Of a stretch of DNA of 35,867 nt, positions 6,918 through 35,675 are shown piece by piece. The stretch covers positions 1 through 35,867 of the forward strand of contig NJBI01000035.1 in the NCBI GenBank assembly GCA_005222975.1, given 5' to 3'. Source of the stretch: Promethearchaeota archaeon Loki_b31 (GTDB lineage: Archaea > Asgardarchaeota > Lokiarchaeia > Sigyniarchaeales > SOKP01). How positions within the stretch are numbered: position 1 is the first letter of the stretch; each line of letters starts with the position of its first letter. The notes under the pieces were generated by a model. It worked only from the letters and a program-made list of their open reading frames with translations, did not search any database and was not told where the DNA came from. The position numbers and the translations under genes are program-made.

Positions 6918-8858
6918 ATGGAAAAATCTGAAAATCATCGGATTGGATACTATGCATGCCAGTGAGGTATAAATATACGTAGTAAAGTTGATTGCGACGA
7001 GTTAGTACAGTTTGCCAAAGGTCTAGATGGTGTGGTTATTTCAAAAATTCATGCCTTTCTATGAACAGAAAGCGGTCAAAACGAGATAATCAAAGACATA
7101 GAAGAAAAAAACTTAGATTGTATTGTAGCTTCTGCTTGAACGCCTAGGACTCACGAACCAATTTATAGAGGATCGATTGCTAAGACCGCTATGAATCCTT
7201 ACTTTTTTCAAATGGTTAACGTAAGAGAACATTGCTCTTGGTGTACTGAAGATAACGAAGAAGCTTTAGAAAAAGCAAAAATCTTGGTTCATGGCGGAAT
7301 TAATAGAGCAAAATGTTTGGAAGCCGTCCCTGTTAGAACAGTTCCCGTTGAAAAAGCAACCTTAGTTGTTGGCGGAGGAATAGCTGGGATGAACGCTGCG
7401 TTAGACCTAGCCAATGGAGGGATAAAAGTTTATTTAGTCGAAAAAAATACCACGATCGGGGGAAGGATGTCTCAGTTAGATAGAACCTTCCCAACCGACG
7501 ATTGTTCGATTTGAATTTGCGGACCCAAAATGCTTGAAGTCAATCGCCACGAAAATATCGAGATTCTAAGCTATAGCGAAGTGAAAAACGTTGAAGGATA
7601 TGTAGGAAATTATAAAATCACCGTTGAGAAGAAGTCGCGTTATATAAATAACGATTGTAATGGTTGTGGTGCCTGTTCTGAAGTGTGTCCAGTATATACT
7701 TCGAACTATTTTGACGAAAATTTAGGAGTGAGAAAAGCAATAGATATAGCGTTTGGACAAGCAGTACCTTTTTTGTACGACATTAATAGAGATGTATGCG
7801 TTGAATGTTTTAGTTGTGTGGAAGCTTGTGAGTTAGATGCTATTGACTTCAGTCAAGTGCCTGAAGAAGTTATGTTTAATGTAGGAACGATAATAATCGC
7901 AACTGGATGGGATATTTACGAACCATATGGAGAATATGGATACGGAAAGTTCGAAAATGTGATTCAACAAGCCCAACTTGAAAGAATCTTAGCACCGAAT
8001 GGTCCATTAGAAGGACACGTTCATAGAATTTCGGACGCCAAAAAACCTAAGGAGATTGTGTTTATTCAATGCGTAGGAAGTCGTGACACGGAAAGACCTT
8101 ATTGTAGTGGCGTTTGTTGTATGTTATCGTTGAAAAACGGAAAATTGCTTAAAGAAGAATTTCCAGACGCGAACATTACCATCTGCTACATAGATATAAG
8201 AACGAACGAAAAAGGTTTCGAAGAATATTATCAACGAGCTAAAGATTCTGATATCAGGATGATCCGGGGAAAGGTTGGCGAAATTACTGAAGATCCAGAA
8301 ACTAAAAATGTAAATATTCGGGTTTATTCGTCTTTAACTGACGAGATCATTAAAATTAGCGCGGATCTAGTCGTTCTATCTACAGCTGCATTGCCATCAA
8401 AAGGTACGGACCAAATAGCTCAAGTATTAAACCTAGATGTCGATAGAAACGGGTTTTTAACAGAAGCTCACTTTGGATTAATGCCACAAGAGACTAAGGC
8501 TAAAGGAATTTTCATAGCTGGGTTTGCTCAAGGACCAAAAAACATTGCGTATTCGGTTTCTCAAGCAAGAGCAGCTGCAAGTAAAGTAGCTGAATTAACC
8601 GCCCCTGGAAAAATAGATATTGAATTAATAACTGCTGAGGTTTATAAAGAGCTGTGTATTTCGTGTAAAAGGTGCGAAAAAGCATGCCCTAAAAACGCTA
8701 TAAAAGTTGTTCGTGACGAAGGTGCTGTTGTAGACGAGATAAATTGCGATGGGTGCGGGATTTGCGTTACTTGTTGTCCCACTCAAGCAATAGACATTAG
8801 ATATTATCGAGATTATCAACTATTTACTGAAATTGATGGAATTTTAGAAGGAGGTTAA
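6918..8858 (+). CDS. hdrA: Heterodisulfide reductase subunit A, selenoprotein, 646 aa with 4 predicted Sec (U16, U49, U74, U199)
   Basis: One frame from ATG 6918 (GAGGTG upstream) to TAA 8856-8858, interrupted only by TGA at 6963, 7062, 7137 and 7512. Contexts are RIGYYACQUGINI, HAFLUTESGQ, VASAUTPRTHE and TFPTDDCSIUICGPKM; the paralog at 13329 has Cys at each. Also GGGIAG FAD motif, CVGSRD and YCSGVCC, and two ferredoxin domains. Joins track ORFs 7191-7514 and 7530-8858. Confidence 0.92.
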
Positions 8859-8863
8859 ACGGA

Positions 8864-9322
8864 ATGGAGAATAATTATAAAATTGTAATATTTGCTTGTC
8901 TAAAGTGAGGATATAGCGCTGCAGATTTAGCAGGAGTCTCTCGTATGAAATATACAGCATCAGTAAAGATTATTAAAGTAAGATGCACTGGAAGAGTCGA
9001 TGTAAAGCACATCTTATATAGCATAAAAGCTGGAGCTGACGGAGTTATGGTTGTTGGATGACGACCAAATGAATGTCAGTTTAAAGAAGGAAATTTTAAC
9101 GCCCAAAGACATGTTGATTTTGCTAATAGAATTTTGGAAAAGCGAGGATTCGGTAGTCGAAGAGTTAATATGTATTGGCTAAGTAGTGCTGAGGCAGAAA
9201 AGTTTGTTAAAAGCGTCGAGGATGCGTACGAAAAGGTAAAAAGATCTGGACCCAATCCGTTAAAAAGCATGGATATTAAAAAAGTAAAACAAAAAATATT
9301 AACTACTCCCATAGAAGAATGA
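8864..9322 (+). CDS. mvhD: MvhD/VhuD [2Fe-2S] subunit, selenoprotein, 152 aa with 2 predicted Sec (U15, U66)
   Basis: ATG 8864 after GGAGGT. Reads MENNYKIVIFACLKUGYSAADLAGVSR...RCTGRVD...GADGVMVVGURPNECQFKEGN, with TGA at 8906 and 9059 opposite Cys in the paralog at 20526 (CCNWCSY, TGCHIGDC). Joins track ORF 9134-9322. Confidence 0.92.
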
Positions 9323-9341
9323 ATCTTATAAAAAAAATTTA

Positions 9342-9383
9342 GTTATAAGATGACTTACCTTGCGAAGGAGGGAGTCTAATAAT
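9342..9383 (+). promoter_or_regulatory. Putative SECIS element (eukaryote-like AUGA/GA core) downstream of mvhD
   Basis: GTTATAAGATGACTTACCTTGCGAAGGAGGGAGTCTAATAAT folds by hand into a lower stem, U9351.G9374, tandem G9352.A9373 and A9353.G9372, an upper stem CTT(A)CCT/AGGAGG and an apical loop TGCGA. It is a GC-rich spot in an AT-rich spacer right after two TGA-containing genes. Confidence 0.72.
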
Positions 9384-9433: not shown

Positions 9434-10942
9434 ATGGTTCAAGTTGTAAATAGCAAGTTATTTAAGGGAATTTCTCCCAAAGACTTAATGGAGGCTACTT
9501 ATCAAGCTTCGGGAAACTTTCAAGTTAGAGCTTTTTTTGAAGCAAAAGAAGAGATATTGAAAGTAAATAAATTTTCTGAAAACGAATTTTACGAAATCCT
9601 AGATGCTATGATAGAAGCAGAAACTGAGCGTAAATTAGTACTGAAAGAATTAATGGGGAATAAGCCGTTATTTTTAGAGGAAATCGTAAAGATCGTCAAA
9701 GATTTCCCTCCTGAAAATGTTATTGGAGATGTTATATATTTAAAAGAACAGGGGTATGTTCAGGAACATGTGGAAATCAAGACTAAAACGGTTATAAAAA
9801 AAATCAAGGGAGAAGAAAAAGAAGTTGAAGTGAAAGAATTCTTTTATAGGTACCAAGTAAGGGATTTACCAGACGATTTTATTGAGTACTATTTTGAACC
9901 TGTTTCTATAGTTTTTAACGCGGGAGTCTGTTGTCAATGTGGATGGTGCTCTGCGATCTGTCCTGTAAACGCCATTGTAGTAACGGCAGACACTCTTGAA
10001 ATTGACGAAGATATTTGCATGAAATGTGGGTTGTGTTTTTCGGTCTGTCCTCGTTCCTTTTCGATAGATCAAGCTAACGAAAGCATTAAAAAGTTAGACA
10101 AATCTTTAAAATGGTCTGACAAAACTGGAGCTTATATTAACGCTTACTCAGCATCAACGACCAAAGATGATATTAAGAAAGTTCGTCAAGATGGTGGTAT
10201 TGTAACTTCTATCTTGGAATATCTTTTAGATAATAATCTTGTTGATGCAATTGTAGCTGTGCAGCATTCTGAGGAATTATGGAGACCAGAACCTGTAATA
10301 GTAGAAAGTGTGGAAGATTTATATAAAACGGGTGGAACTAAATATGCAAATTCGCCTTCTTTAACCATCATAGATCAATGTAAGAAATACGAGAAGATAG
10401 CTTTCGTAGGAGTGCCTTGCATGATGAAAGCTATAGAAAAGGGGACTATGTTTCCAAGTGGGTTACCATTTTTTAAAAATATTAAATACAAGATCGGTCT
10501 TTTTTGCATGGAATCATTCCCTTACGACGGAATAATTAATTTAGCTAAAGAACAGTTTAATAAGGACATAAACGAACTAACCAAAATGAATATTGGAGGC
10601 GGTAAATTTATAATAAATTTGAAATCTGGAGAGCAAATGGATGTACCACTTAAAGAAGTGCAAAAATACGCGCGTGATAATTGTCATTTTTGTGAAGATC
10701 TAACATCAGATTACGCCGACATTTCTGTAGGATCGATTGGGTCGCAAGATGGATGGTCTTCTGTAATAACGAGATCGAAAGATGCAGATAAACTATATAA
10801 CGATATAGTTAAAGCAGGATTAATCGAATCTAAGAGTTTAAAGGATGTAAAGCCCGGGCAATTTCTAGTTGAAAAAATTGGTGTAAGTAAACGAAAAAAA
10901 TGTAAATCAATAAATTTAAAAGAGAATCAAGATGGACACTAA
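9434..10942 (+). CDS. FrhB/FdhB-family F420-binding subunit with ferredoxin domain and extra ~150 aa N-terminal (winged-helix-like) domain
   Basis: CCQCGWCSAICP, CMKCGLCFSVCP, QDGGIVT, VGVPC, IGLFCMESF and CHFCEDLTSDYADISVGSIG. Confidence 0.85.
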   Translation: MVQVVNSKLFKGISPKDLMEATYQASGNFQVRAFFEAKEEILKVNKFSENEFYEILDAMIEAETERKLVLKELMGNKPLFLEEIVKIVKDFPPENVIGDVIYLKEQGYVQEHVEIKTKTVIKKIKGEEKEVEVKEFFYRYQVRDLPDDFIEYYFEPVSIVFNAGVCCQCGWCSAICPVNAIVVTADTLEIDEDICMKCGLCFSVCPRSFSIDQANESIKKLDKSLKWSDKTGAYINAYSASTTKDDIKKVRQDGGIVTSILEYLLDNNLVDAIVAVQHSEELWRPEPVIVESVEDLYKTGGTKYANSPSLTIIDQCKKYEKIAFVGVPCMMKAIEKGTMFPSGLPFFKNIKYKIGLFCMESFPYDGIINLAKEQFNKDINELTKMNIGGGKFIINLKSGEQMDVPLKEVQKYARDNCHFCEDLTSDYADISVGSIGSQDGWSSVITRSKDADKLYNDIVKAGLIESKSLKDVKPGQFLVEKIGVSKRKKCKSINLKENQDGH

Positions 10943-12044
10943 AACATTTCAGGATTTAATAAAGGAAGTACACGATATAGGCATTTGTCAAGAATGTGGA
11001 GGCTGTGTAAGTTTTTGTAGCTCAGCAGAATATAATGTTATTGGATTTAAAGACCAATATTTGCCTCCAGTATATATTAACGAAGATAAATGCCTCGAAT
11101 GTGGAATATGTTATTATATTTGTCCACAAACACATGTTTTAGACGATGATCTCAACAAAACCTATAATTTTTCTGATTTTTCTTCTATGCCAATCGGATT
11201 TTACGAGGATATATATTCGTGTCAAGCCTCTGATGAGGAATTTTTAGAATATGGAACTGATGGCGGTGTAGTGAACTCAATAATAAATTATTTGATAGAA
11301 AAAAAAATGGTTGATGGAGCAATTGTTTCGAGGACTGAAGCTCCTTTTTCCAGGGAAGCAACTTTTGCCGATAATAAACGTGATTTAATAAGATCTTCTG
11401 GAACTAAATTGGATATCTCGCCTCATTTAGACGAGATACAAAAGTTTAGTACTTATACTCATTCAATTCCAGAATTGAATCATTATAAATTCAAAAAATT
11501 AGCGGTAGTGGGTACTCCTTGCCAATTATATACGATCAGGTGTATGCAAGATTTAGGAGTGACTCCTTCTGAAAATGTTGAGATATGTCTTGGCTTATTT
11601 TGTTATGAAAATTTCTTTTTTGAAAAATCGCAGATAAAGAAATTTGAGAAAGATTTTAACATAAAATTTTCTGACATTGTTAAGATCAACATCAAAGAGG
11701 ATGTGATTTTTAGATTAAAAAGTGAAGGAACAGGAGAAAAAATAATCCATATTCCATTTAATCATTTAAAAGAGTATAAGCGTCCAGCCTGTAACGCTTG
11801 TGATGACTTCACTAATATTTTTGCTGATATCTCATTTGGAGGGTTAGGCTCACCTGATAAATATACTACTGTTATACCTCGAACTGAGAAAGGCAAAAGT
11901 ATTTTATCTCAGGTAATTAATGCTGGAATAATTAATTGTTTAGATTTAGATTCGAATAAAAAAACTAAAATGACTGAGTTAATTTCCCAATTTTCTCAAT
12001 CAAAAATTAAACGTAAAGAAGATTTTATGAAGAATATAATTTAA
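10932..12044 (+). CDS. FrhB/FdhB-family F420-binding subunit with ferredoxin domain
   Basis: CQECGGCVSFC, CLECGICYYICP, GTDGGVV, VGTPCQ, LGLFC and CNACDDFTNIFADISFGGLG. Overlaps the previous gene by 11 nt. Confidence 0.85.
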   Translation: MDTKTFQDLIKEVHDIGICQECGGCVSFCSSAEYNVIGFKDQYLPPVYINEDKCLECGICYYICPQTHVLDDDLNKTYNFSDFSSMPIGFYEDIYSCQASDEEFLEYGTDGGVVNSIINYLIEKKMVDGAIVSRTEAPFSREATFADNKRDLIRSSGTKLDISPHLDEIQKFSTYTHSIPELNHYKFKKLAVVGTPCQLYTIRCMQDLGVTPSENVEICLGLFCYENFFFEKSQIKKFEKDFNIKFSDIVKINIKEDVIFRLKSEGTGEKIIHIPFNHLKEYKRPACNACDDFTNIFADISFGGLGSPDKYTTVIPRTEKGKSILSQVINAGIINCLDLDSNKKTKMTELISQFSQSKIKRKEDFMKNII

Positions 12045-12057
12045 AGAGGAGTCTATT

Positions 12058-13329
12058 ATAACAGAAACAAAAAGAGATATTGAGAGAAAAAAGTTATTTG
12101 GAGATACCTTAGATTATTTAGACAAAATTTATGAACCAGATTTAAGAAAGCTATTAAAGAAATGCTATCAATGCGGTCGATGTAGCGGAGTTTGTCAATT
12201 AAGTAAGGTACAAAAATACACTCCAAGTAAAATTATTCAATTAATTTTAGAGGGTTTTGAAGAAAAAGTATTAAAGAGCGAGGTATTATGGGATTGCCTG
12301 ACGTGTAATTTGTGTCTTGCGATATGTCCAGAGGAAATAAACTTTGCAGATCTTGTTAGAATGGCCAGATATAAGATGAGGCATTCATACAATCAAAATA
12401 TCGATGAATCAATAGCACATAAAGGAATCTATACGACGATTTCAGAAATAATAAGTCGTCCATATATTAATCCAGATAGATCTCTCGAATGGATTCCTAA
12501 GGGTTGTAAAACATCGAGTAAAGGGAATATTTTATATTTTGTTGGTTGTTTACCTTATTTCAATTACGAATTTGATAATTTAGATTCTATAGCAAAAAGT
12601 ACGCTACAAATTTTATGTAAAGTCGAAAAAGAACCAATAGTCGTTTTTAAGGATGAAATTTGTTGCGGACACGATATATACTGGGGTCAAGGAAAGTTAA
12701 AAACATTTATTAAGTTAGCAAAAAAAAATATTGAAATGTTTGAGAAAGCAGGAGTCTTTACTATCGTAACTGCTTGTGCTGAATGCTATAGAACTTTTAA
12801 GATTGACTATCAAAAAATTTTTGAAGATTTTAACGAAAAATTTGAAGTAAAGCATATTATTGAATACATTTATGAGATGTGGAAGGAAGGTAAAATAGAA
12901 TTCATAAATACGAGTAAACTTGAAGAACAAATCCCATTTACATATCACGATCCATGTAGATTAAGCAGGTTTTTACCCAAAGAAAATAATATTACTGAAA
13001 GTGTTCGGGAAATATTTAAGGAATTCAATAAATTAGGTTATAATTTTAACGAGATGGAACATAATAAATCAAACTCTTTATGTTGTGGTGTGAATTCTTG
13101 GATGAATTGTAATGAGAAATCTAAAGCTCTTAGATATAAAAGAATGTTAGAAGCCAAATCTGCTGGTACAGTAATGGTAACCTCTTGCCCGAAATGCCGA
13201 ATACATTTATCTTGTCTCCAAAATGATATCGAAGAAATTTCTTCAATAGAGATATTAGATTTCTCTGAGTTTTTAATAAATCATATTAAAGTTATTGAAT
13301 CCAATAGAAAAAGTGAGGAACAGAAATAA
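12058..13329 (+). CDS. HdrD/GlpC-like Fe-S oxidoreductase (2x[4Fe-4S] plus two CCG domains); start extended upstream of track ORF 12310
   Basis: The frame is open from 12040 and encodes CYQCGRCSGVC and CLTCNLCLAICP; the track start at 12310 cuts the second motif. GAGGAG at 12046-12051 precedes ATA 12058. CCG motifs YFVGC/EICCG/TACAEC and HDPC/LCCG/TSCPKC. TAA overlaps the next ATG. Confidence 0.8.
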   Translation: MTETKRDIERKKLFGDTLDYLDKIYEPDLRKLLKKCYQCGRCSGVCQLSKVQKYTPSKIIQLILEGFEEKVLKSEVLWDCLTCNLCLAICPEEINFADLVRMARYKMRHSYNQNIDESIAHKGIYTTISEIISRPYINPDRSLEWIPKGCKTSSKGNILYFVGCLPYFNYEFDNLDSIAKSTLQILCKVEKEPIVVFKDEICCGHDIYWGQGKLKTFIKLAKKNIEMFEKAGVFTIVTACAECYRTFKIDYQKIFEDFNEKFEVKHIIEYIYEMWKEGKIEFINTSKLEEQIPFTYHDPCRLSRFLPKENNITESVREIFKEFNKLGYNFNEMEHNKSNSLCCGVNSWMNCNEKSKALRYKRMLEAKSAGTVMVTSCPKCRIHLSCLQNDIEEISSIEILDFSEFLINHIKVIESNRKSEEQK

Positions 13330-16300
13330 TGGAAGGGTCGGTATTGGTCATTGGCGCTGGTATTGCTGGAATCCAAACCTCTTTAGATCTAACCGAACTT
13401 GGATTTAAAGTTTATCTTGTAGAAAGATCGCCTTCAATTGGCGGAAGGATGGCTCAACTTGATAAGACTTTCCCTACGAATGATTGTAGCCTCTGCATTT
13501 TAGCTCCGAAAATGGTTGAGGTGTTTAGAAATCCTAATATTGAGCTAATGACTTATCACGAAGTTAAAAAAATTAGTGGAGATGCTGGAAATTTTACCGT
13601 CACTGTTCTAAAAAAGCCTCGTTATCTTGAAGAATCCTTGTGCAAGGGGTGCGGGGATTGCGCAGCAAAGTGTCCTAAAATTGAAGTTCCTAATCTCTTC
13701 GATATGAATCTTGGCAAAAGAAAGTCAATTTATATACCTTTTCCACAAGCGGTCCCTCCAGTATACCTAATTGATCCCGAGCTTTGCCTTAAAATAACTA
13801 AAGGTGTGTGCGGAGTCTGTCAAAAAGTATGTACGGTTGAAGCGATAGATTTTGAGCAAAAACCTCAAGAAATTAAAATTAATGTGGGGGCTATTGTTGT
13901 AGCAACGGGATTTGATATGCCTGCTGAACAATTAAATTCAAGATGGGGGTATCGATATCAAAATGTAGTGAGCGCTTTAGAATACGAAAGAATATTATGC
14001 GCCTCTGGTCCGTTTGAAGGTCATGTCTTACGCCCTAGTGACCAAAAAGAACCTGAGAAAATAGCTTTCATTCAATGTGCGGGCTCAAGGGATTTACATG
14101 AAGGAATTCCTTATTGTTCGTCAGTATGTTGTATGTATAGCGCCAAAGAAGCGATCATAACTCGGGAACACTCAGATAATACTGAATGTTTTGTTTTTAG
14201 ACACGATATCAGAGCATATGGAAAAAACTTTTATGAATTTACCCAAAGAGCTCAAGAAGAATATGGCGTAAAATATTTTCAGACAAAAATAAGTAATATT
14301 GAAGAAGACACGGAAACTAACGATTTAATTATTCGCTATGAAGATTTAAAAAATGGAACATTTAATGATTTCCGAGCTAATTTAGTCGTTTTAGCTACAC
14401 CGTTGGTTCCTACAAAAGGAACAGAAGAATTAGCAAGCATCTTAAAAGTTGAATTAGACAAATACAATTTTTTTAAAGAAAAATCTTATTTTAACAAATC
14501 CTTGTCATCAAAAGGGGGAGTTTTCTTATGTGGTTTCTGTCAAGGACCAATGGACATACCCGAAACTGTTGCTGACGCAAGTGGAGTAGCATCTCAAGTC
14601 GCAATGTTACTAAATTCAGTAAAATTTAACGCAATTAAAGAAAAGAAATTTGATGAACCTGAAAAGGAAGTAAAGATTACAGACGAACCACGTATAGGAG
14701 TGCTTATCTGTCACTGTGGGATTAACATTGGAAAATATGTTGATGTTTCTAGTGCTGTAGATTATGTTAAAACATTACCTTATGTTGTTCATTGTGAAGA
14801 TAATATGTATTCTTGTTCTAGTGATTCCCAAGTAAGAATAAGAGAATTGATAAAAGAACATAATCTTAATAGATTTATCGTAGCTTCGTGTACGCCAAGA
14901 ACCCATGAATCATTATTTCAAGAAACCTGCTTAGAAGCTGGATTAAACAAATATTTATTCGAAATGGTTAATATACGCGACCAATGCAGTTGGGTTCATA
15001 TGAATGAATATGAATTTGCAACTGAAAAATCTAAAGATTTGATACGAATGGCTGTTGCTAAAGCGCGGTTACTAAAACCTCTTACTGAAACAAAATTAGA
15101 TATTACACCAACCGCTTTAATTATTGGTGGTGGTGTAACTGGTATGACTGTTGCCCTCAATCTTGCTAATCAAGGATTTAAAACATATATTGCTGAAAAA
15201 GAAGATAATTTAGGAGGTAATCTTAACAACCTTAATATTTTATATCCAATCCACGAGGAGGCTTCAAAATTTTTAAAAGAGATTATAAACAAAGTTGAGA
15301 AAAATAAAAATATCCAGATTCTTCTCGAGTCAGATATTAAAGAAATTAAAGGATTTATCGGTAATTATAATGTTTCTATTACCGCATTAAATCAAAAAGT
15401 TCACGATTTAAAAGTTGGTACAATTATTATTGCTACTGGAGCTCAAGAGTTAAAACCAGAAGGTATTTTTCAGTATAGCAAAAATAATAAAAATGTACTT
15501 ACTCAATTAGAATTAGAAAAAAGATTGAAAGAAGAGGGTAAATCTTGGCTCGACAACATAAATCGCATAACGATAATCCTCTGTGTCAATTCAAGGCAAA
15601 AGGAAGGAGAAGGAATAACTTATTGCTCAAATATTTGCTGTGGAGTGAGTATTAAAAATATTAGTATTTTAAAAGAATTAAAACCAAACCTCGAAATTGT
15701 TGTTCTGTACAGAGATCTTCAGATGGCTAAAAAGGAGTTTGAAGAATACTATCGTGAACGTAGAAAAGAGGCTATGTTTCTGAGATATGACTTAGAAAAC
15801 ATACCAAAAATAATGAAAAAAAGCGGTAAATCCGAAAAATATCAAGTATCTGTATTTGACACGAATTTACAAGATAATCTTCAATTTGATACAGATTTAA
15901 TTGTATTATCAACTCCTATGATTCCCTCTGACAATTTAGAAGGATTAGCTAGGATGCTAAAAGTACCATTGGATAAAAATGGTTTTTTCTTAGAAGCACA
16001 TGTTAAGCTAAGACCTTTAGATTTTGCTACAGATGGCATTTTTCTAAGCGGATGTGCCCAATGGCCAAAGAACATTCAAGATTCAATTTCCCAAGCTAAT
16101 GGAGCTGCGGGGAGAGCAAGTAGATTTTTAAGTGCTAAAACAATTACAAGCTCAGGATTGATAGCCGAAGTAAACCCGGGAAGATGTATAGGTTGTGGGA
16201 AGTGTGAATCCGTTTGTCCATATAATGCTATTGAACTTAAGGAAGCAATTATGGACTTTGAAGAAATTAGTTTAAAAGTTTCAAAATCCTTTATTAACTC

Positions 16301-16421
16301 AGCACTGTGTAAAGGTTGCGGCACTTGTGCGGCAACATGTCCAAACGGCGCAATATCTGTAAAGCATTATGATTTCGATCAAATTTATGCTATGATAGAA
16401 TCTTATTTACTAGAATCGTAA
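13329..16421 (+). CDS. hdrA: Large HdrA-like protein with two FAD modules (Cys-type), 1030 aa
   Basis: GAGIAG and GGGVTG FAD motifs, TFPTNDCSLC, CAGSRD/YCSSVCC, an internal RIGVLICHCG...CTPRTHE...CSWVH domain, and a C-terminal ferredoxin. Confidence 0.9.
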   Translation: MEGSVLVIGAGIAGIQTSLDLTELGFKVYLVERSPSIGGRMAQLDKTFPTNDCSLCILAPKMVEVFRNPNIELMTYHEVKKISGDAGNFTVTVLKKPRYLEESLCKGCGDCAAKCPKIEVPNLFDMNLGKRKSIYIPFPQAVPPVYLIDPELCLKITKGVCGVCQKVCTVEAIDFEQKPQEIKINVGAIVVATGFDMPAEQLNSRWGYRYQNVVSALEYERILCASGPFEGHVLRPSDQKEPEKIAFIQCAGSRDLHEGIPYCSSVCCMYSAKEAIITREHSDNTECFVFRHDIRAYGKNFYEFTQRAQEEYGVKYFQTKISNIEEDTETNDLIIRYEDLKNGTFNDFRANLVVLATPLVPTKGTEELASILKVELDKYNFFKEKSYFNKSLSSKGGVFLCGFCQGPMDIPETVADASGVASQVAMLLNSVKFNAIKEKKFDEPEKEVKITDEPRIGVLICHCGINIGKYVDVSSAVDYVKTLPYVVHCEDNMYSCSSDSQVRIRELIKEHNLNRFIVASCTPRTHESLFQETCLEAGLNKYLFEMVNIRDQCSWVHMNEYEFATEKSKDLIRMAVAKARLLKPLTETKLDITPTALIIGGGVTGMTVALNLANQGFKTYIAEKEDNLGGNLNNLNILYPIHEEASKFLKEIINKVEKNKNIQILLESDIKEIKGFIGNYNVSITALNQKVHDLKVGTIIIATGAQELKPEGIFQYSKNNKNVLTQLELEKRLKEEGKSWLDNINRITIILCVNSRQKEGEGITYCSNICCGVSIKNISILKELKPNLEIVVLYRDLQMAKKEFEEYYRERRKEAMFLRYDLENIPKIMKKSGKSEKYQVSVFDTNLQDNLQFDTDLIVLSTPMIPSDNLEGLARMLKVPLDKNGFFLEAHVKLRPLDFATDGIFLSGCAQWPKNIQDSISQANGAAGRASRFLSAKTITSSGLIAEVNPGRCIGCGKCESVCPYNAIELKEAIMDFEEISLKVSKSFINSALCKGCGTCAATCPNGAISVKHYDFDQIYAMIESYLLES

Positions 16422-32361: not shown

Positions 32362-32383
32362 TATCATTTCTTATTTGATAATC

Positions 32384-34351
32384 ATGGATATTGAAAAATT
32401 CTTAGATGATGTTCTTACAGAAGTAAACGGGCAGAGAGCATGGGATTGGGTTGCAAAGCTTTCTCAATTTAGCAGAATACAAGCCTCTAATGGATATCAT
32501 GAGAGCCTTGAAGAAATTAAAAGAGAATTAGAGAACATCGGGTTTAATGATATTGAGCATTTTAAGTCTCCAGCTGATGGAAATACAGTAATTTGGGGGT
32601 ATGAGGCACCTTACCAATGGGAAATTGAATCAGGTGAACTATGGATTACTGAGCCTGAAAGTGTAAAACTCTGTGATTTTAATGATATACAAACTTCTAT
32701 AATCACACATTCAAAGTCATGCGATGTTATCGCAGAAATCATAGATATAGGAATAGGTGATAAACAGGAAGATTATGAAAAGCACAATATTGAAGGTAAA
32801 ATTATATTGATATCATCTTCAACCTATATGTATCATCCATATATCGAGAATTCTGGGGCGTTAGGGGTAATTTTTTATCCTGATTTGAAAAGGACCAGAT
32901 ATAACTTTGACCGCCGCATTTATAATAGCTTTTTTACTACAGAGAAAAGAATGAGTAATGCTAAATTCGGCTTTAGTATTTCGTATAACCAGGCAATGCA
33001 TTTGAAAGATTTGTTAGAAAAAGGATCTGTTAAAGTCCATGCTAAAATTAAGGCTGAGTTTATAGAAGGTAATTTAGAAGTATTAAGCACTTCCGTTCAA
33101 GGAAAAGAATTTCCTGACCAAGAAATCATTATTATTGCACATTTATGCCATCCCCTCCCCAGTGCCAATGATAATGCTAGTGGAGCCGCAGGTTTATTAG
33201 AGCTAGCAAGGGCTTTTAAATATTTGATGAATAAAAATATTTTAGAAATACCAAAACGAACAATTAGATTTGTATGGGTGCCAGAATTTAATGGAACTGT
33301 TCCCTGGATGAAGTTTCACGAAGAAGAAATCAGAAAAGTATTAGTTTGTATAAATTTAGATATGATAGGAGAACATCCACTTAAGATCGGATACCCTTTG
33401 GAAGTTAATTTAACTCCACGATCCATTCCTTCAATTCTTAACGATATAACTTCATATTTTGTAAAAAGAATTGCTGATCACCCTAAGGGAATTGCAATCA
33501 ATGGAACTAAAATTCCAATGTCCTACAGGCTTAGAAATTTTGATGGAGGTAGTGATCACATTCTATTTACAGATTTCTATTTCTCAATTCCTTCACTTAT
33601 GTTTGGCCATGAAGATCTTCATTATCATTCTTCAATGGATACAGTGGAGTATTGTGATTCAACCGAATTAAAAAGAGTTATCTCAATGGCTATGAGCATA
33701 TCCTATATATTTTCAATCTTCGATAAAGACATTACTAAAACAGTTTGGCCAATATTACATCAAGGGATATTTACTAGAATTGGAAAAGCAATCAATCTAA
33801 TGGAGAAATTATATTTATCTATAGCCACTCCAGAAAATCGATTAACAAAAGAAATTATAACCGAATTTTTCTTATTGGGAAATGATATTTTAGAATCATG
33901 CTTTCAATATGAATTAAAGTCTTTAGAATGGATGAAACGCATTGATTCATCCCCAAATGCTCTTTCACTTATAGAATCAACAGAAGCTGAAATCAAACAA
34001 ATATTTAGGTTTCAGAAATTAAGATGGAAAGAACAAATAGCTTTTAAAGAAGAAGAAGGAATAAATTCGGAAAAATTTAATAATACTTATGAACCAAACT
34101 TCGATGGACCTTTTCTTGTTGGTCACTTATTTAAATTATACAAAATGCCACTATTTAAAGATTTAATAGAGGAATTGAAGTATGAATTCTTAGGTCCAAT
34201 TAACGAGTTGATCAATTTAATATGTAAGGGCTATAATCTTTTAAGAACTGCTAGCTTTATGTCATTAGAATATGAGACTATTATAACTCCAAGCAAGATA
34301 CTAGATTTGGTTAATCATCTGGAAGATGAAAAATTAATAAGGAGGATTTAG
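32384..34351 (+). CDS. M28-like aminopeptidase with PA-type insertion (DUF4910-like)
   Basis: AHLCH, SANDNASG, WVPE, NLDMIG, GSDH and YHSSMD. ATG 32384 preferred over TTG 32375. Confidence 0.82.
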   Translation: MDIEKFLDDVLTEVNGQRAWDWVAKLSQFSRIQASNGYHESLEEIKRELENIGFNDIEHFKSPADGNTVIWGYEAPYQWEIESGELWITEPESVKLCDFNDIQTSIITHSKSCDVIAEIIDIGIGDKQEDYEKHNIEGKIILISSSTYMYHPYIENSGALGVIFYPDLKRTRYNFDRRIYNSFFTTEKRMSNAKFGFSISYNQAMHLKDLLEKGSVKVHAKIKAEFIEGNLEVLSTSVQGKEFPDQEIIIIAHLCHPLPSANDNASGAAGLLELARAFKYLMNKNILEIPKRTIRFVWVPEFNGTVPWMKFHEEEIRKVLVCINLDMIGEHPLKIGYPLEVNLTPRSIPSILNDITSYFVKRIADHPKGIAINGTKIPMSYRLRNFDGGSDHILFTDFYFSIPSLMFGHEDLHYHSSMDTVEYCDSTELKRVISMAMSISYIFSIFDKDITKTVWPILHQGIFTRIGKAINLMEKLYLSIATPENRLTKEIITEFFLLGNDILESCFQYELKSLEWMKRIDSSPNALSLIESTEAEIKQIFRFQKLRWKEQIAFKEEEGINSEKFNNTYEPNFDGPFLVGHLFKLYKMPLFKDLIEELKYEFLGPINELINLICKGYNLLRTASFMSLEYETIITPSKILDLVNHLEDEKLIRRI

Positions 34352-34361
34352 ATACAATCTT

Positions 34362-35675
34362 TCATTCTAAATTGATAAATCCTTGGTTAATTTTTAGCAT
34401 TTCTTCAAACATTTCTTCGGCTTTTGATGCGTTTCCTATGGTTGGGTCCAACAGTAAAGCTTGAAATGCAATATCCTTTGATTTTTTAAGAATTGCTTCT
34501 ACTACTAAGTCTTGAACTGAAGCTTGATTGCGTAGTAATGCTGCTAACCCTTTTGGATAATCTCCAAGCTTAATTGCCTTTAATCCGCTCTTAGTAACAA
34601 TTGCAGGGCATTCCACAACTAAATCGCGAGGTATATTAGTAATTACATCCTCGTTCGGTAAATTTACTGAAGCCTCTTCATGATTAGAATCAGTTTTTAT
34701 ACCTTCAATAATAGGAATCGCTCTTTCATAATCGGGTTTTACAAGACGCGCACCTTTTCCTCTTTTTATTGACTTTTGGATTCTTCTTCCAATTAACAAT
34801 GTGAGACCTTTATAACCGTTATAAAACGCTCTTACTCCCTCGATGTTTGCTTTTTCCCAACCCCACGATATATACTCTCCATAATGGGAATCTTGCGTAT
34901 ACGGAATGTACCCAAACTTTTCAAGGATGTATTTAATCAAATCAACATCGTAGGGGAATCCAATAACGTTACTCAGATATTCCGGAGCCCTTTTTCTAAG
35001 ATCAGGATACGCATCTTTATTCTTATCAATATACCGTATTGATAGGAGAACACCAAAATGATTTAATCCTCCAGCTCTCATCTCAAGATTAGAAAGTGGA
35101 GTGTTAAGTATCTTGGAATAATGACGTACAAATCCAGGAAATTCGTGACATAAACCCACAAAATTTATCGAAGGAAATTTTCGCTTGATAGCTAAACAGA
35201 TTCTACTCATAGGATTTGAATAATTAATAACAAAGGCATCAGGGCAGATTTTATTGATGTCATCACAAATTTCGAGGATCGGAGGAATCACTCGTAATGA
35301 ATGAAATAATCCTCCCGGACCTCCATTTTCGCCCATAACTTGTTTATTGCCATACTTACGAGGAGTTTCGTAATCTAAATCAAACCATTTAAATCTTGGA
35401 CCGACTTCTATAGAATTTATTATAAAAGTAGCATTTTTCAAAGCTTTTTTCCTATCAATTGTGAACTCTAGTTCAAAATCCAAATGTTTCTGCTCGATTG
35501 CATCTTTACACGACTGGGTTACTAAATCTAAGTTAGTCTCATTGATGTCATGCAAACTTATTGTAGAACCTTGTAAAACATCGCTATTAATTATACTCCC
35601 AACTGAACCCAATCCAAATTGTAAAGAGCCAGCTCCAATTATTACAATCTTTTCCTTTTTTGTCAAATTCTTCAT
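34362..35675 (-). CDS. Family 4 glycoside hydrolase (NAD+/Mn-dependent alpha-galactosidase/alpha-glucosidase, MelA-like)
   Basis: IIGAGS, GENGGPGG, NYSNP, GLCHE, GLNHF and VVECP. ATG 35675 preferred. Ends in TGA. Confidence 0.9.
   Translation of the reverse strand: MKNLTKKEKIVIIGAGSLQFGLGSVGSIINSDVLQGSTISLHDINETNLDLVTQSCKDAIEQKHLDFELEFTIDRKKALKNATFIINSIEVGPRFKWFDLDYETPRKYGNKQVMGENGGPGGLFHSLRVIPPILEICDDINKICPDAFVINYSNPMSRICLAIKRKFPSINFVGLCHEFPGFVRHYSKILNTPLSNLEMRAGGLNHFGVLLSIRYIDKNKDAYPDLRKRAPEYLSNVIGFPYDVDLIKYILEKFGYIPYTQDSHYGEYISWGWEKANIEGVRAFYNGYKGLTLLIGRRIQKSIKRGKGARLVKPDYERAIPIIEGIKTDSNHEEASVNLPNEDVITNIPRDLVVECPAIVTKSGLKAIKLGDYPKGLAALLRNQASVQDLVVEAILKKSKDIAFQALLLDPTIGNASKAEEMFEEMLKINQGFINLE

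Follow-up and report, generated by a model that had tools for sequence, protein, structure and literature searches.

The presence of several selenocysteine (Sec, U) residues in heterodisulfide reductase subunit A (HdrA) of Loki archaea was described by Mariotti et al. (2016; Mol Biol Evol 33:2441, PMC4989117), who found as many as four Sec, distributed over five possible positions. In their data hdrA and vhuD formed an invariable tandem in which up to six UGA codons, spread over approximately 2 kb, shared one Sec insertion sequence (SECIS). This eukaryote-like lokiSECIS, which has a stem of 9 bp and an apical loop of 11 nt, in some cases overlapped a stop codon; hdrA was never terminated by UGA, and the Loki tRNA-Sec was found to bear an intron of 31 nt in its T-loop. 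A 2024 survey (PMC11227280) has since extended the analysis to all Asgard metagenome-assembled genomes and lists 1,439 selenoproteins, among them HdrA and FrhD/VhuD pairs which share an eSECIS-like element. Here we describe an hdrA gene at positions 6918 to 8858 of a 35,867-nucleotide stretch from Promethearchaeota archaeon Loki_b31 (contig NJBI01000035.1; the whole stretch is referred to below as the window), which an earlier note had picked out as a hidden selenoprotein with four in-frame UGA codons. The finding is real and had been rightly read, and it is already known: the novelty implied in the note is not supported, as multi-Sec Loki HdrA, its pairing with vhuD and the shared SECIS formed the core of the 2016 paper and were re-surveyed across Asgard genomes in 2024, and as a discovery the locus adds little.

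The features held in common with the Loki pairs of Mariotti et al. are up to four Sec in HdrA, always including the site near residue 200, a vhuD gene with two Sec immediately downstream on the same strand, a single AUGA...GA SECIS, six UGAs, an hdrA stop other than UGA, and a 31-nt intron in the T-loop of tRNA-Sec. The genome studied here differs in an apparent second insertion in its tRNA-Sec, located in the D-loop, and otherwise in nothing essential; a few relatives carry a fifth HdrA Sec (at 297 or 300), one above the 2016 maximum. When compared to methanococcal HdrA and VhuD, the fold, the domain order, the CxxU Sec adjacent to the flavin adenine dinucleotide (FAD) and both VhuD Sec positions are the same, whereas methanococcal HdrA has one Sec only, with cysteines at the three N-domain sites, and a SECIS of the euryarchaeal type. 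Its host is a methanogen using CoM-S-S-CoB, the heterodisulfide of coenzymes M and B, a compound which, to our knowledge, Loki archaea do not make. Vertebrate selenoprotein P likewise has many UGA/Sec codons in one message and SECIS elements acting from a distant 3' position, but the protein is unrelated, and its message is monocistronic, contains two such elements and depends on the eukaryotic, SBP2-based machinery.

The hdrA reading frame and its conservation

With TGA read through, positions 6918-8858 of the forward strand translate as a single HdrA frame of 646 codons, terminated by a TAA at 8856-8858. Exactly four in-frame TGA codons were present, at codons 16, 49, 74 and 199, and no other TAA or TAG and no frameshift was found in translation of the whole frame; the description of a 646-codon frame interrupted by TGA alone, from which the earlier note started, is thus borne out. 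The predicted protein has an N-terminal Cys/Sec domain and a thioredoxin-reductase-like FAD-binding domain, together with two ferredoxin domains, one inserted and the other, of the 2x[4Fe-4S] type, at the C-terminus. Pfam recognised in it the FAD/Rossmann motif and two ferredoxin-type (Fer4) regions, and the dinucleotide-binding motif GGGIAG occupies residues 152-157. Residues 5-644 aligned end to end with every solved HdrA structure, with E values of 2e-199 (9sfi_A) and 6e-195 (5odc_A); a full-length match at 2e-199 places the frame far beyond chance. By both fold and architecture, the product is HdrA.

Each of the four TGA codons fell on a conserved cysteine in these alignments. Codon 16 (6963-6965, motif CQU) corresponds to Cys13 of chain A of PDB entry 5ODC, codon 49 (7062-7064, motif FLU) to Cys46 and codon 74 (7137-7139, motif SAUTP) to Cys71. 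Codon 199 (7512-7514, motif DCSIU) corresponds to Cys197 of 5ODC and to the experimentally modelled Sec (X) of 9sfi_A, an HdrA of the M. maripaludis type; it is a member of the CxxU pair beside the FAD, the canonical Sec site. The only other N-domain position of this series, C14, is a cysteine here as in 5ODC (Cys11). The alignments to 5ODC and 9sfi_A therefore support an HdrA with one canonical Sec and three additional ones at its N-terminus, as had been proposed.

Full-length HdrA scored below the curated cut-offs of the NCBIfam CoB-CoM HdrA models (594 against 1400 bits for NF041778, 597 against 1300 for NF041891, and 772 against 1100 for NF040770), in part because these models, of some 770 positions, include an MvhD-like C-terminus which here is encoded by a separate gene. 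The last of them represents Methanosarcina HdrA2, an HdrA-MvhD fusion with which the two genes are collinear, hdrA covering positions 1-641 and vhuD positions 647-773 of 777. The differences from HdrA2 are the presence of two genes instead of a fusion, the shortfall in bits and the occurrence of Sec in the present proteins.

To examine conservation of the TGA codons, orthologues were searched for in 40 related genomes, and 22 genomes of the same genus yielded hdrA at 80-95% identity. None of the 22 departed from TGA at codons 16, 74 or 199; at codon 49, TGA was present in 17 and TGT or TGC in five. A wider scan of species-representative genomes, mostly metagenome-assembled genomes of Promethearchaeota/Promethearchaeia, returned 80 orthologous loci at 75-95% identity. 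Fifty-four of these displayed the pattern UUUU and 23 the pattern UCUU, the remaining three being truncated at the 5' end. Counted by site, TGA occupied codon 16 in 77/77 and codon 74 in 78/78 of the orthologues covering the site, and codon 199 in 80/80, while codon 49 was TGA in 54 and a cysteine codon (TGY) in 24. Variation among the four sites was thus confined to codon 49 and to exchange between Sec and Cys. The cysteine at position 14 was present in 80/80. The stop codon of hdrA was TAA in 64 of the orthologues and TAG in 16, so that with the window copy included it was TAA or TAG in 81/81 and never TGA. A fifth HdrA Sec was seen in four loci (L027, at codon 300, and three among L050-L129, at codon 297 or 300), in each case at a ligand position of the CxxCxxC motif of the inserted ferredoxin domain. 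In one more orthologue, which has Cys at 49, the C-terminal ferredoxin domain bears an additional Sec (613), bringing the total to four.

The strength of selection was estimated by the Nei-Gojobori method as the ratio of nonsynonymous to synonymous substitution rates (dN/dS) against 13 gap-free orthologues. Values of 0.04-0.22 were obtained for codons 1-198 and of 0.03-0.12 for codons 200-646. Purifying selection thus acts across the TGA codons, and its comparable intensity on both sides of the last of them indicates that the upstream part of hdrA is also translated. These values, together with the conserved TGAs and the absence of frameshifts, bear out the judgement of the earlier note that decay of the gene is implausible; its test of TGA conservation in relatives was passed in the 22 same-genus orthologues and the 80 species loci alike.

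The four other HdrA paralogues in the genome form a nested series with the window copy: Sec is found at 16 and 199, then also at 74, and in the window copy also at 49, while one copy, a single-unit HdrA on contig C87, has only Cys at these sites. Across the genome, TGA terminates 154 of 1434 long frames; it is therefore still in use as a terminator, pointing to local recoding and not to a genome-wide reassignment.

The window also holds an HdrA paralogue at 13329-16421 (forward strand), with which the cysteine matches had originally been drawn (CHC/CQU, YSC/FLU, ASCTP/SAUTP and CSLC/CSIU). The matches are real, but they do not all lie within one contiguous HdrA unit: CHC, YSC and ASCTP belong to an internal N-domain-like segment of the second of two HdrA modules and CSLC to the first, so that no single unit contains the four. 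This 1030-aa protein is a fused double HdrA, in which module 1 has the CxxC (with the Cys197 equivalent) and no N-terminal domain, and module 2 has the N-domain cysteines and no Cys197 equivalent. The same complementary, 'self-heterodimer' pattern was described for HdrA3/4 of anaerobic methanotrophic archaea (ANME) by Chadwick et al. (2022). A further candidate for an in-window paralogue, at 32375-34351, was rejected, as that gene encodes an M28 peptidase.

The vhuD gene, the SECIS element and the Sec machinery

Immediately downstream of hdrA, separated from its stop codon by 5 nt, is a vhuD/mvhD gene of the FlpD family (8864-9322, forward strand; 152 codons and a UGA stop; Pfam E = 1e-43). 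Two in-frame UGA codons, U15 (8906-8908) and U66 (9059-9061), aligned exactly with the two modelled Sec (X) of the methanococcal VhuD chain 9sfi_K; U15 also aligned with Cys16 of M. marburgensis MvhD. The hdrA-vhuD arrangement was kept in 22/22 of the orthologous loci for which downstream sequence was available. The earlier account of the locus, which overlooked both this two-Sec vhuD and the SECIS that it shares with hdrA, was in this respect incomplete. The genome contains two more pairs of Sec-bearing hdrA and vhuD, both on the reverse strand: one on contig C61 (150028-151956), with three HdrA Sec and a lokiSECIS-like element at about 149552, and one on contig C17 (23262-25187), with two HdrA Sec and a similar element at about 22759. 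Next to the fourth Sec-containing hdrA copy, on contig C23, a pattern search found no vhuD.

Under the standard code neither gene is called correctly. A translation table 11 reading of hdrA yields open reading frames (ORFs) of 107 aa (7191-7514) and 442 aa (7530-8858), and in vhuD it leaves no ORF of at least 80 aa. The public records show the same effect: they consist mainly of 442-aa and 100/107-aa pieces, labelled 'heterodisulfide reductase subunit A' or left unnamed, and the public protein cluster contains only one record of 646 aa. The anticipated splitting and truncation by gene callers was therefore confirmed. Public calls for multi-Sec HdrA are mostly wrong, being fragments devoid of the FAD-binding motif, and vhuD goes uncalled; metabolic reconstructions consequently miss the most Sec-rich Hdr module of these archaea.

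A Loki-type SECIS was identified at 9319-9353, overlapping the end of vhuD. It is composed of an AUGA core (9319-9322), a 9-bp stem (9323-9331 paired with 9343-9351), an A-rich loop of 11 nt (9332-9342) beginning with AAAAAA, and a closing GA (9352-9353); the vhuD stop codon, TGA at 9320-9322, is formed by the last three bases of the core. A larger fold surrounds the element (9305-9375), with a lower stem pairing 9305-9310 with 9370-9375 and a small hairpin on the 3' side, and the 81-nt region has a minimum free energy of -15.1 kcal/mol (z = -2.3). In a strict pattern search for AUGA-9bp-11nt-9bp-GA, the element was recovered 3' of vhuD in 18/22 of the orthologous loci. Alignment of its stem revealed covariation: 93.5% of the positions were paired, and three pairs, in nine cells of the alignment, were changed on both sides, while no register shifted by 1-3 columns exceeded 55% pairing. 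Rfam at its gathering thresholds gave no match in the window, and no Loki SECIS model fired. A looser pattern applied to the whole genome produced 26 matches, largely AT-rich noise, the convincing ones being only those behind the hdrA-vhuD pairs on contigs C17, C61 and C90.

The possibility that hdrA has a SECIS of its own was also considered. Bacterial-type elements within the gene were rejected, since the 60 nt following each UGA folded like their shuffled counterparts (z = +0.5, -0.1, -0.8 and +0.9), and the 5-nt spacer leaves no room for an element between hdrA and vhuD. Together, the four internal UGAs of hdrA and the two of vhuD span approximately 2.4 kb, and the farthest is located 2,356 nt upstream of the SECIS, in the other cistron.

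The genome was also searched for the Sec machinery, the presence of which had been named as a test in the earlier note, and the test was passed: SepSecS, EFsec, a PSTK-like gene, two selD genes and a tRNA-Sec were found. SepSecS scored 383 bits in a profile search, and EFsec, whose best NCBIfam match was selB, includes domain III of archaeal SelB as defined in Pfam (aSelB_III). The two selD genes stand in tandem on the reverse strand of contig C34 (55676-58070) and have one in-frame TGA each; multiple Sec-containing SelD copies were reported in Loki and Thor archaea in 2024. The tRNA-Sec candidate (contig C59, 31980-32135, forward strand), which came to light only when the sequence next to SepSecS was scanned permissively, has a UCA anticodon in the loop CUUCAAA, a 9-bp acceptor stem, G73 and an encoded CCA. 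SepSecS follows it after approximately 55 nt; EFsec is encoded on the other strand, some 3.2 kb away. An insertion of 31 nt was located in its T-loop, and apparently a second, of approximately 35 nt, in its D-loop. The Rfam tRNA-Sec model, run genome-wide, hit ordinary tRNAs only (Arg, Gly and Leu). With introns allowed, ARAGORN also called a 'tRNA-SeC' on the same contig, interrupted by an intron of 90 nt (c[34501-34681]); this was rejected, as its acceptor stem has 7 bp and it resembles a different intron-bearing tRNA.

Decoding of the UGA codons

We consider it very probable that the UGAs of hdrA are Sec codons, and that hdrA and vhuD form one selenoprotein operon in which a single lokiSECIS serves six UGAs that are read as Sec. 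In this mechanism, which is that of Mariotti et al. (2016), hdrA (6918-8858) and vhuD (8864-9322) would most likely be transcribed as one mRNA, and the lokiSECIS following vhuD would recruit the archaeal Sec elongation factor with Sec-tRNA(UCA), presumably for all six codons. The four UGAs of hdrA and the two of vhuD would be decoded as Sec, and the UGA inside the SECIS core would terminate vhuD. The predicted product is a 646-aa HdrA with Sec in place of the CxxC cysteine next to the bifurcating FAD (U199), and in which Sec would also replace three of the four conserved cysteines (U16, U49 and U74) of the mobile N-terminal [4Fe-4S] domain, that of the cluster termed HA3. This Sec-rich HdrA would pair with a VhuD carrying the same two Sec as its methanococcal counterpart.

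If, instead, the UGAs act as terminators, the functional products would be the pieces proposed by gene callers, namely a C-terminal HdrA of 442 aa whose start is at 7530, perhaps accompanied by small N-terminal peptides. Public annotations list exactly such fragments, and a Met codon is indeed present at 7530. However, a product starting there begins at codon 205 and is thus devoid of the GGGIAG motif and of the entire N-terminal domain, whereas codons 1-198 are under purifying selection equal to that on the remainder of the gene, and the TGAs are kept in 80 species and exchanged only with Cys; we therefore regard termination as very unlikely. Just as unlikely is an explanation in which the UGAs are read as Cys or Trp, by near-cognate suppression or through a code change in the lineage. 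Each UGA stands at a Cys position, where insertion of Cys would also give a functional protein. Yet TGA still closes 154 of the 1434 long frames and terminates vhuD itself, the Sec pathway is complete, a conserved SECIS with a covarying stem adjoins the genes, and at three of the six positions the experimental models of the methanococcal homologues contain Sec. Four stop codons in a gene would ordinarily point to decay, and a pseudogene or an assembly error has to be considered for that reason; but there is neither a frameshift nor any other stop in hdrA, the TGAs occupy identical positions in independent assemblies from 80 species, and dN/dS is 0.04-0.22. This last explanation, to which we assign next to no probability, is effectively refuted by the conservation data.

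Several points weigh against the decoding of all six UGAs as Sec from a single element. The strict SECIS pattern was missing in 4/22 of the orthologous loci, possibly owing to variant cores or loops. That one SECIS appears to serve all six codons is deduced from the absence of any other element. The PSTK-like gene, at 140 bits, scored under the NCBIfam curated cut-off, and ARAGORN reported SeC(uca) only after both insertions had been removed in silico from the tRNA-Sec candidate. Furthermore, the incorporation of Sec into the HdrA protein is a prediction, as is the common hdrA-vhuD transcript, although the latter is most likely.

The HA3 cluster and the neighbouring genes

The only N-domain cysteines common to all five solved HdrAs are Cys11, 13, 46 and 71 (5ODC numbering). 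Mariotti et al. (2016; PMC4989117), whose work predates the structure, stated that these cysteines do not coordinate clusters. Chadwick et al. (PMC9012536), in summarising the crystal structure, describe HA3, the N-terminal [4Fe-4S] cluster, as ligated by N-domain cysteines together with Cys197 of the partner subunit, and recent cryo-electron microscopy (cryo-EM) work refers to it as the mobile 'shuttle' cluster, HA3/A3 (PMC13518236). The cryo-EM of M. maripaludis in the same work displays a Cys-Sec197 feature. Cys16 of MvhD adjoins the Cys202/Cys205 pair in state 1.

When the four HdrA Sec sites are placed on this ligand set, as the equivalents of Cys13, 46, 71 and 197, all of them are candidate ligands of HA3. 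Since the sites match N-domain cysteines and Cys197, Sec would supply no fewer than three of the four ligands of HA3 when U199 is ligated. It is possible, although we hold this only tentatively and at slightly less than even chances, that all four HdrA Sec converge on one cofactor site, so that at least three of four HA3 ligands would be selenolates, giving a nearly all-selenium-ligated Fe-S cluster which tunes electron bifurcation. Counted over the pair, five of the six Sec (HdrA U16, U49, U74 and U199, and VhuD U15) may be located on the mobile gating module; VhuD U66 falls outside this count. Should this be the case, these Sec would belong to the gate by which the bifurcating FAD is switched between taking up electrons and delivering them at low potential. 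We did not find this assignment of the four Sec to the HA3 ligands in the literature searched; the remainder was already known. Set against the Hdr structures of 2017-2026, the Sec are seen to cluster at the mobile N-domain cluster, at the flavin-adjacent CxxC and in VhuD, and are not scattered. As these are parts that may act in the gating of electron bifurcation, the natural variant described here could be useful as a probe of the gating question.

The neighbours of the hdrA-vhuD pair in the window include two FrhB-like genes, a gene with a CCG domain (HdrB/D-like) at 12310-13329 and the fused double HdrA; neither hdrC nor a hydrogenase gene was found within the window. The two FrhB/FdhB-like genes (9434-12044, forward strand) lie directly 3' of the SECIS and overlap each other by 11 nt, and in the first the ferredoxin motif is preceded by an N-terminal extension of approximately 160 aa to which no Pfam family matched. 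Their position after hdrA-vhuD is reminiscent of the HdrA2B2C2 complex linked to reduced coenzyme F420 (F420H2), and the pair may provide the electron-input subunits of the Hdr module in place of a hydrogenase. On the reverse strand (251-1171), the window encodes a small GTPase of the Gtr1/RagA family (Pfam E = 2e-24), a eukaryotic-signature protein consistent with an Asgard origin of the contig.

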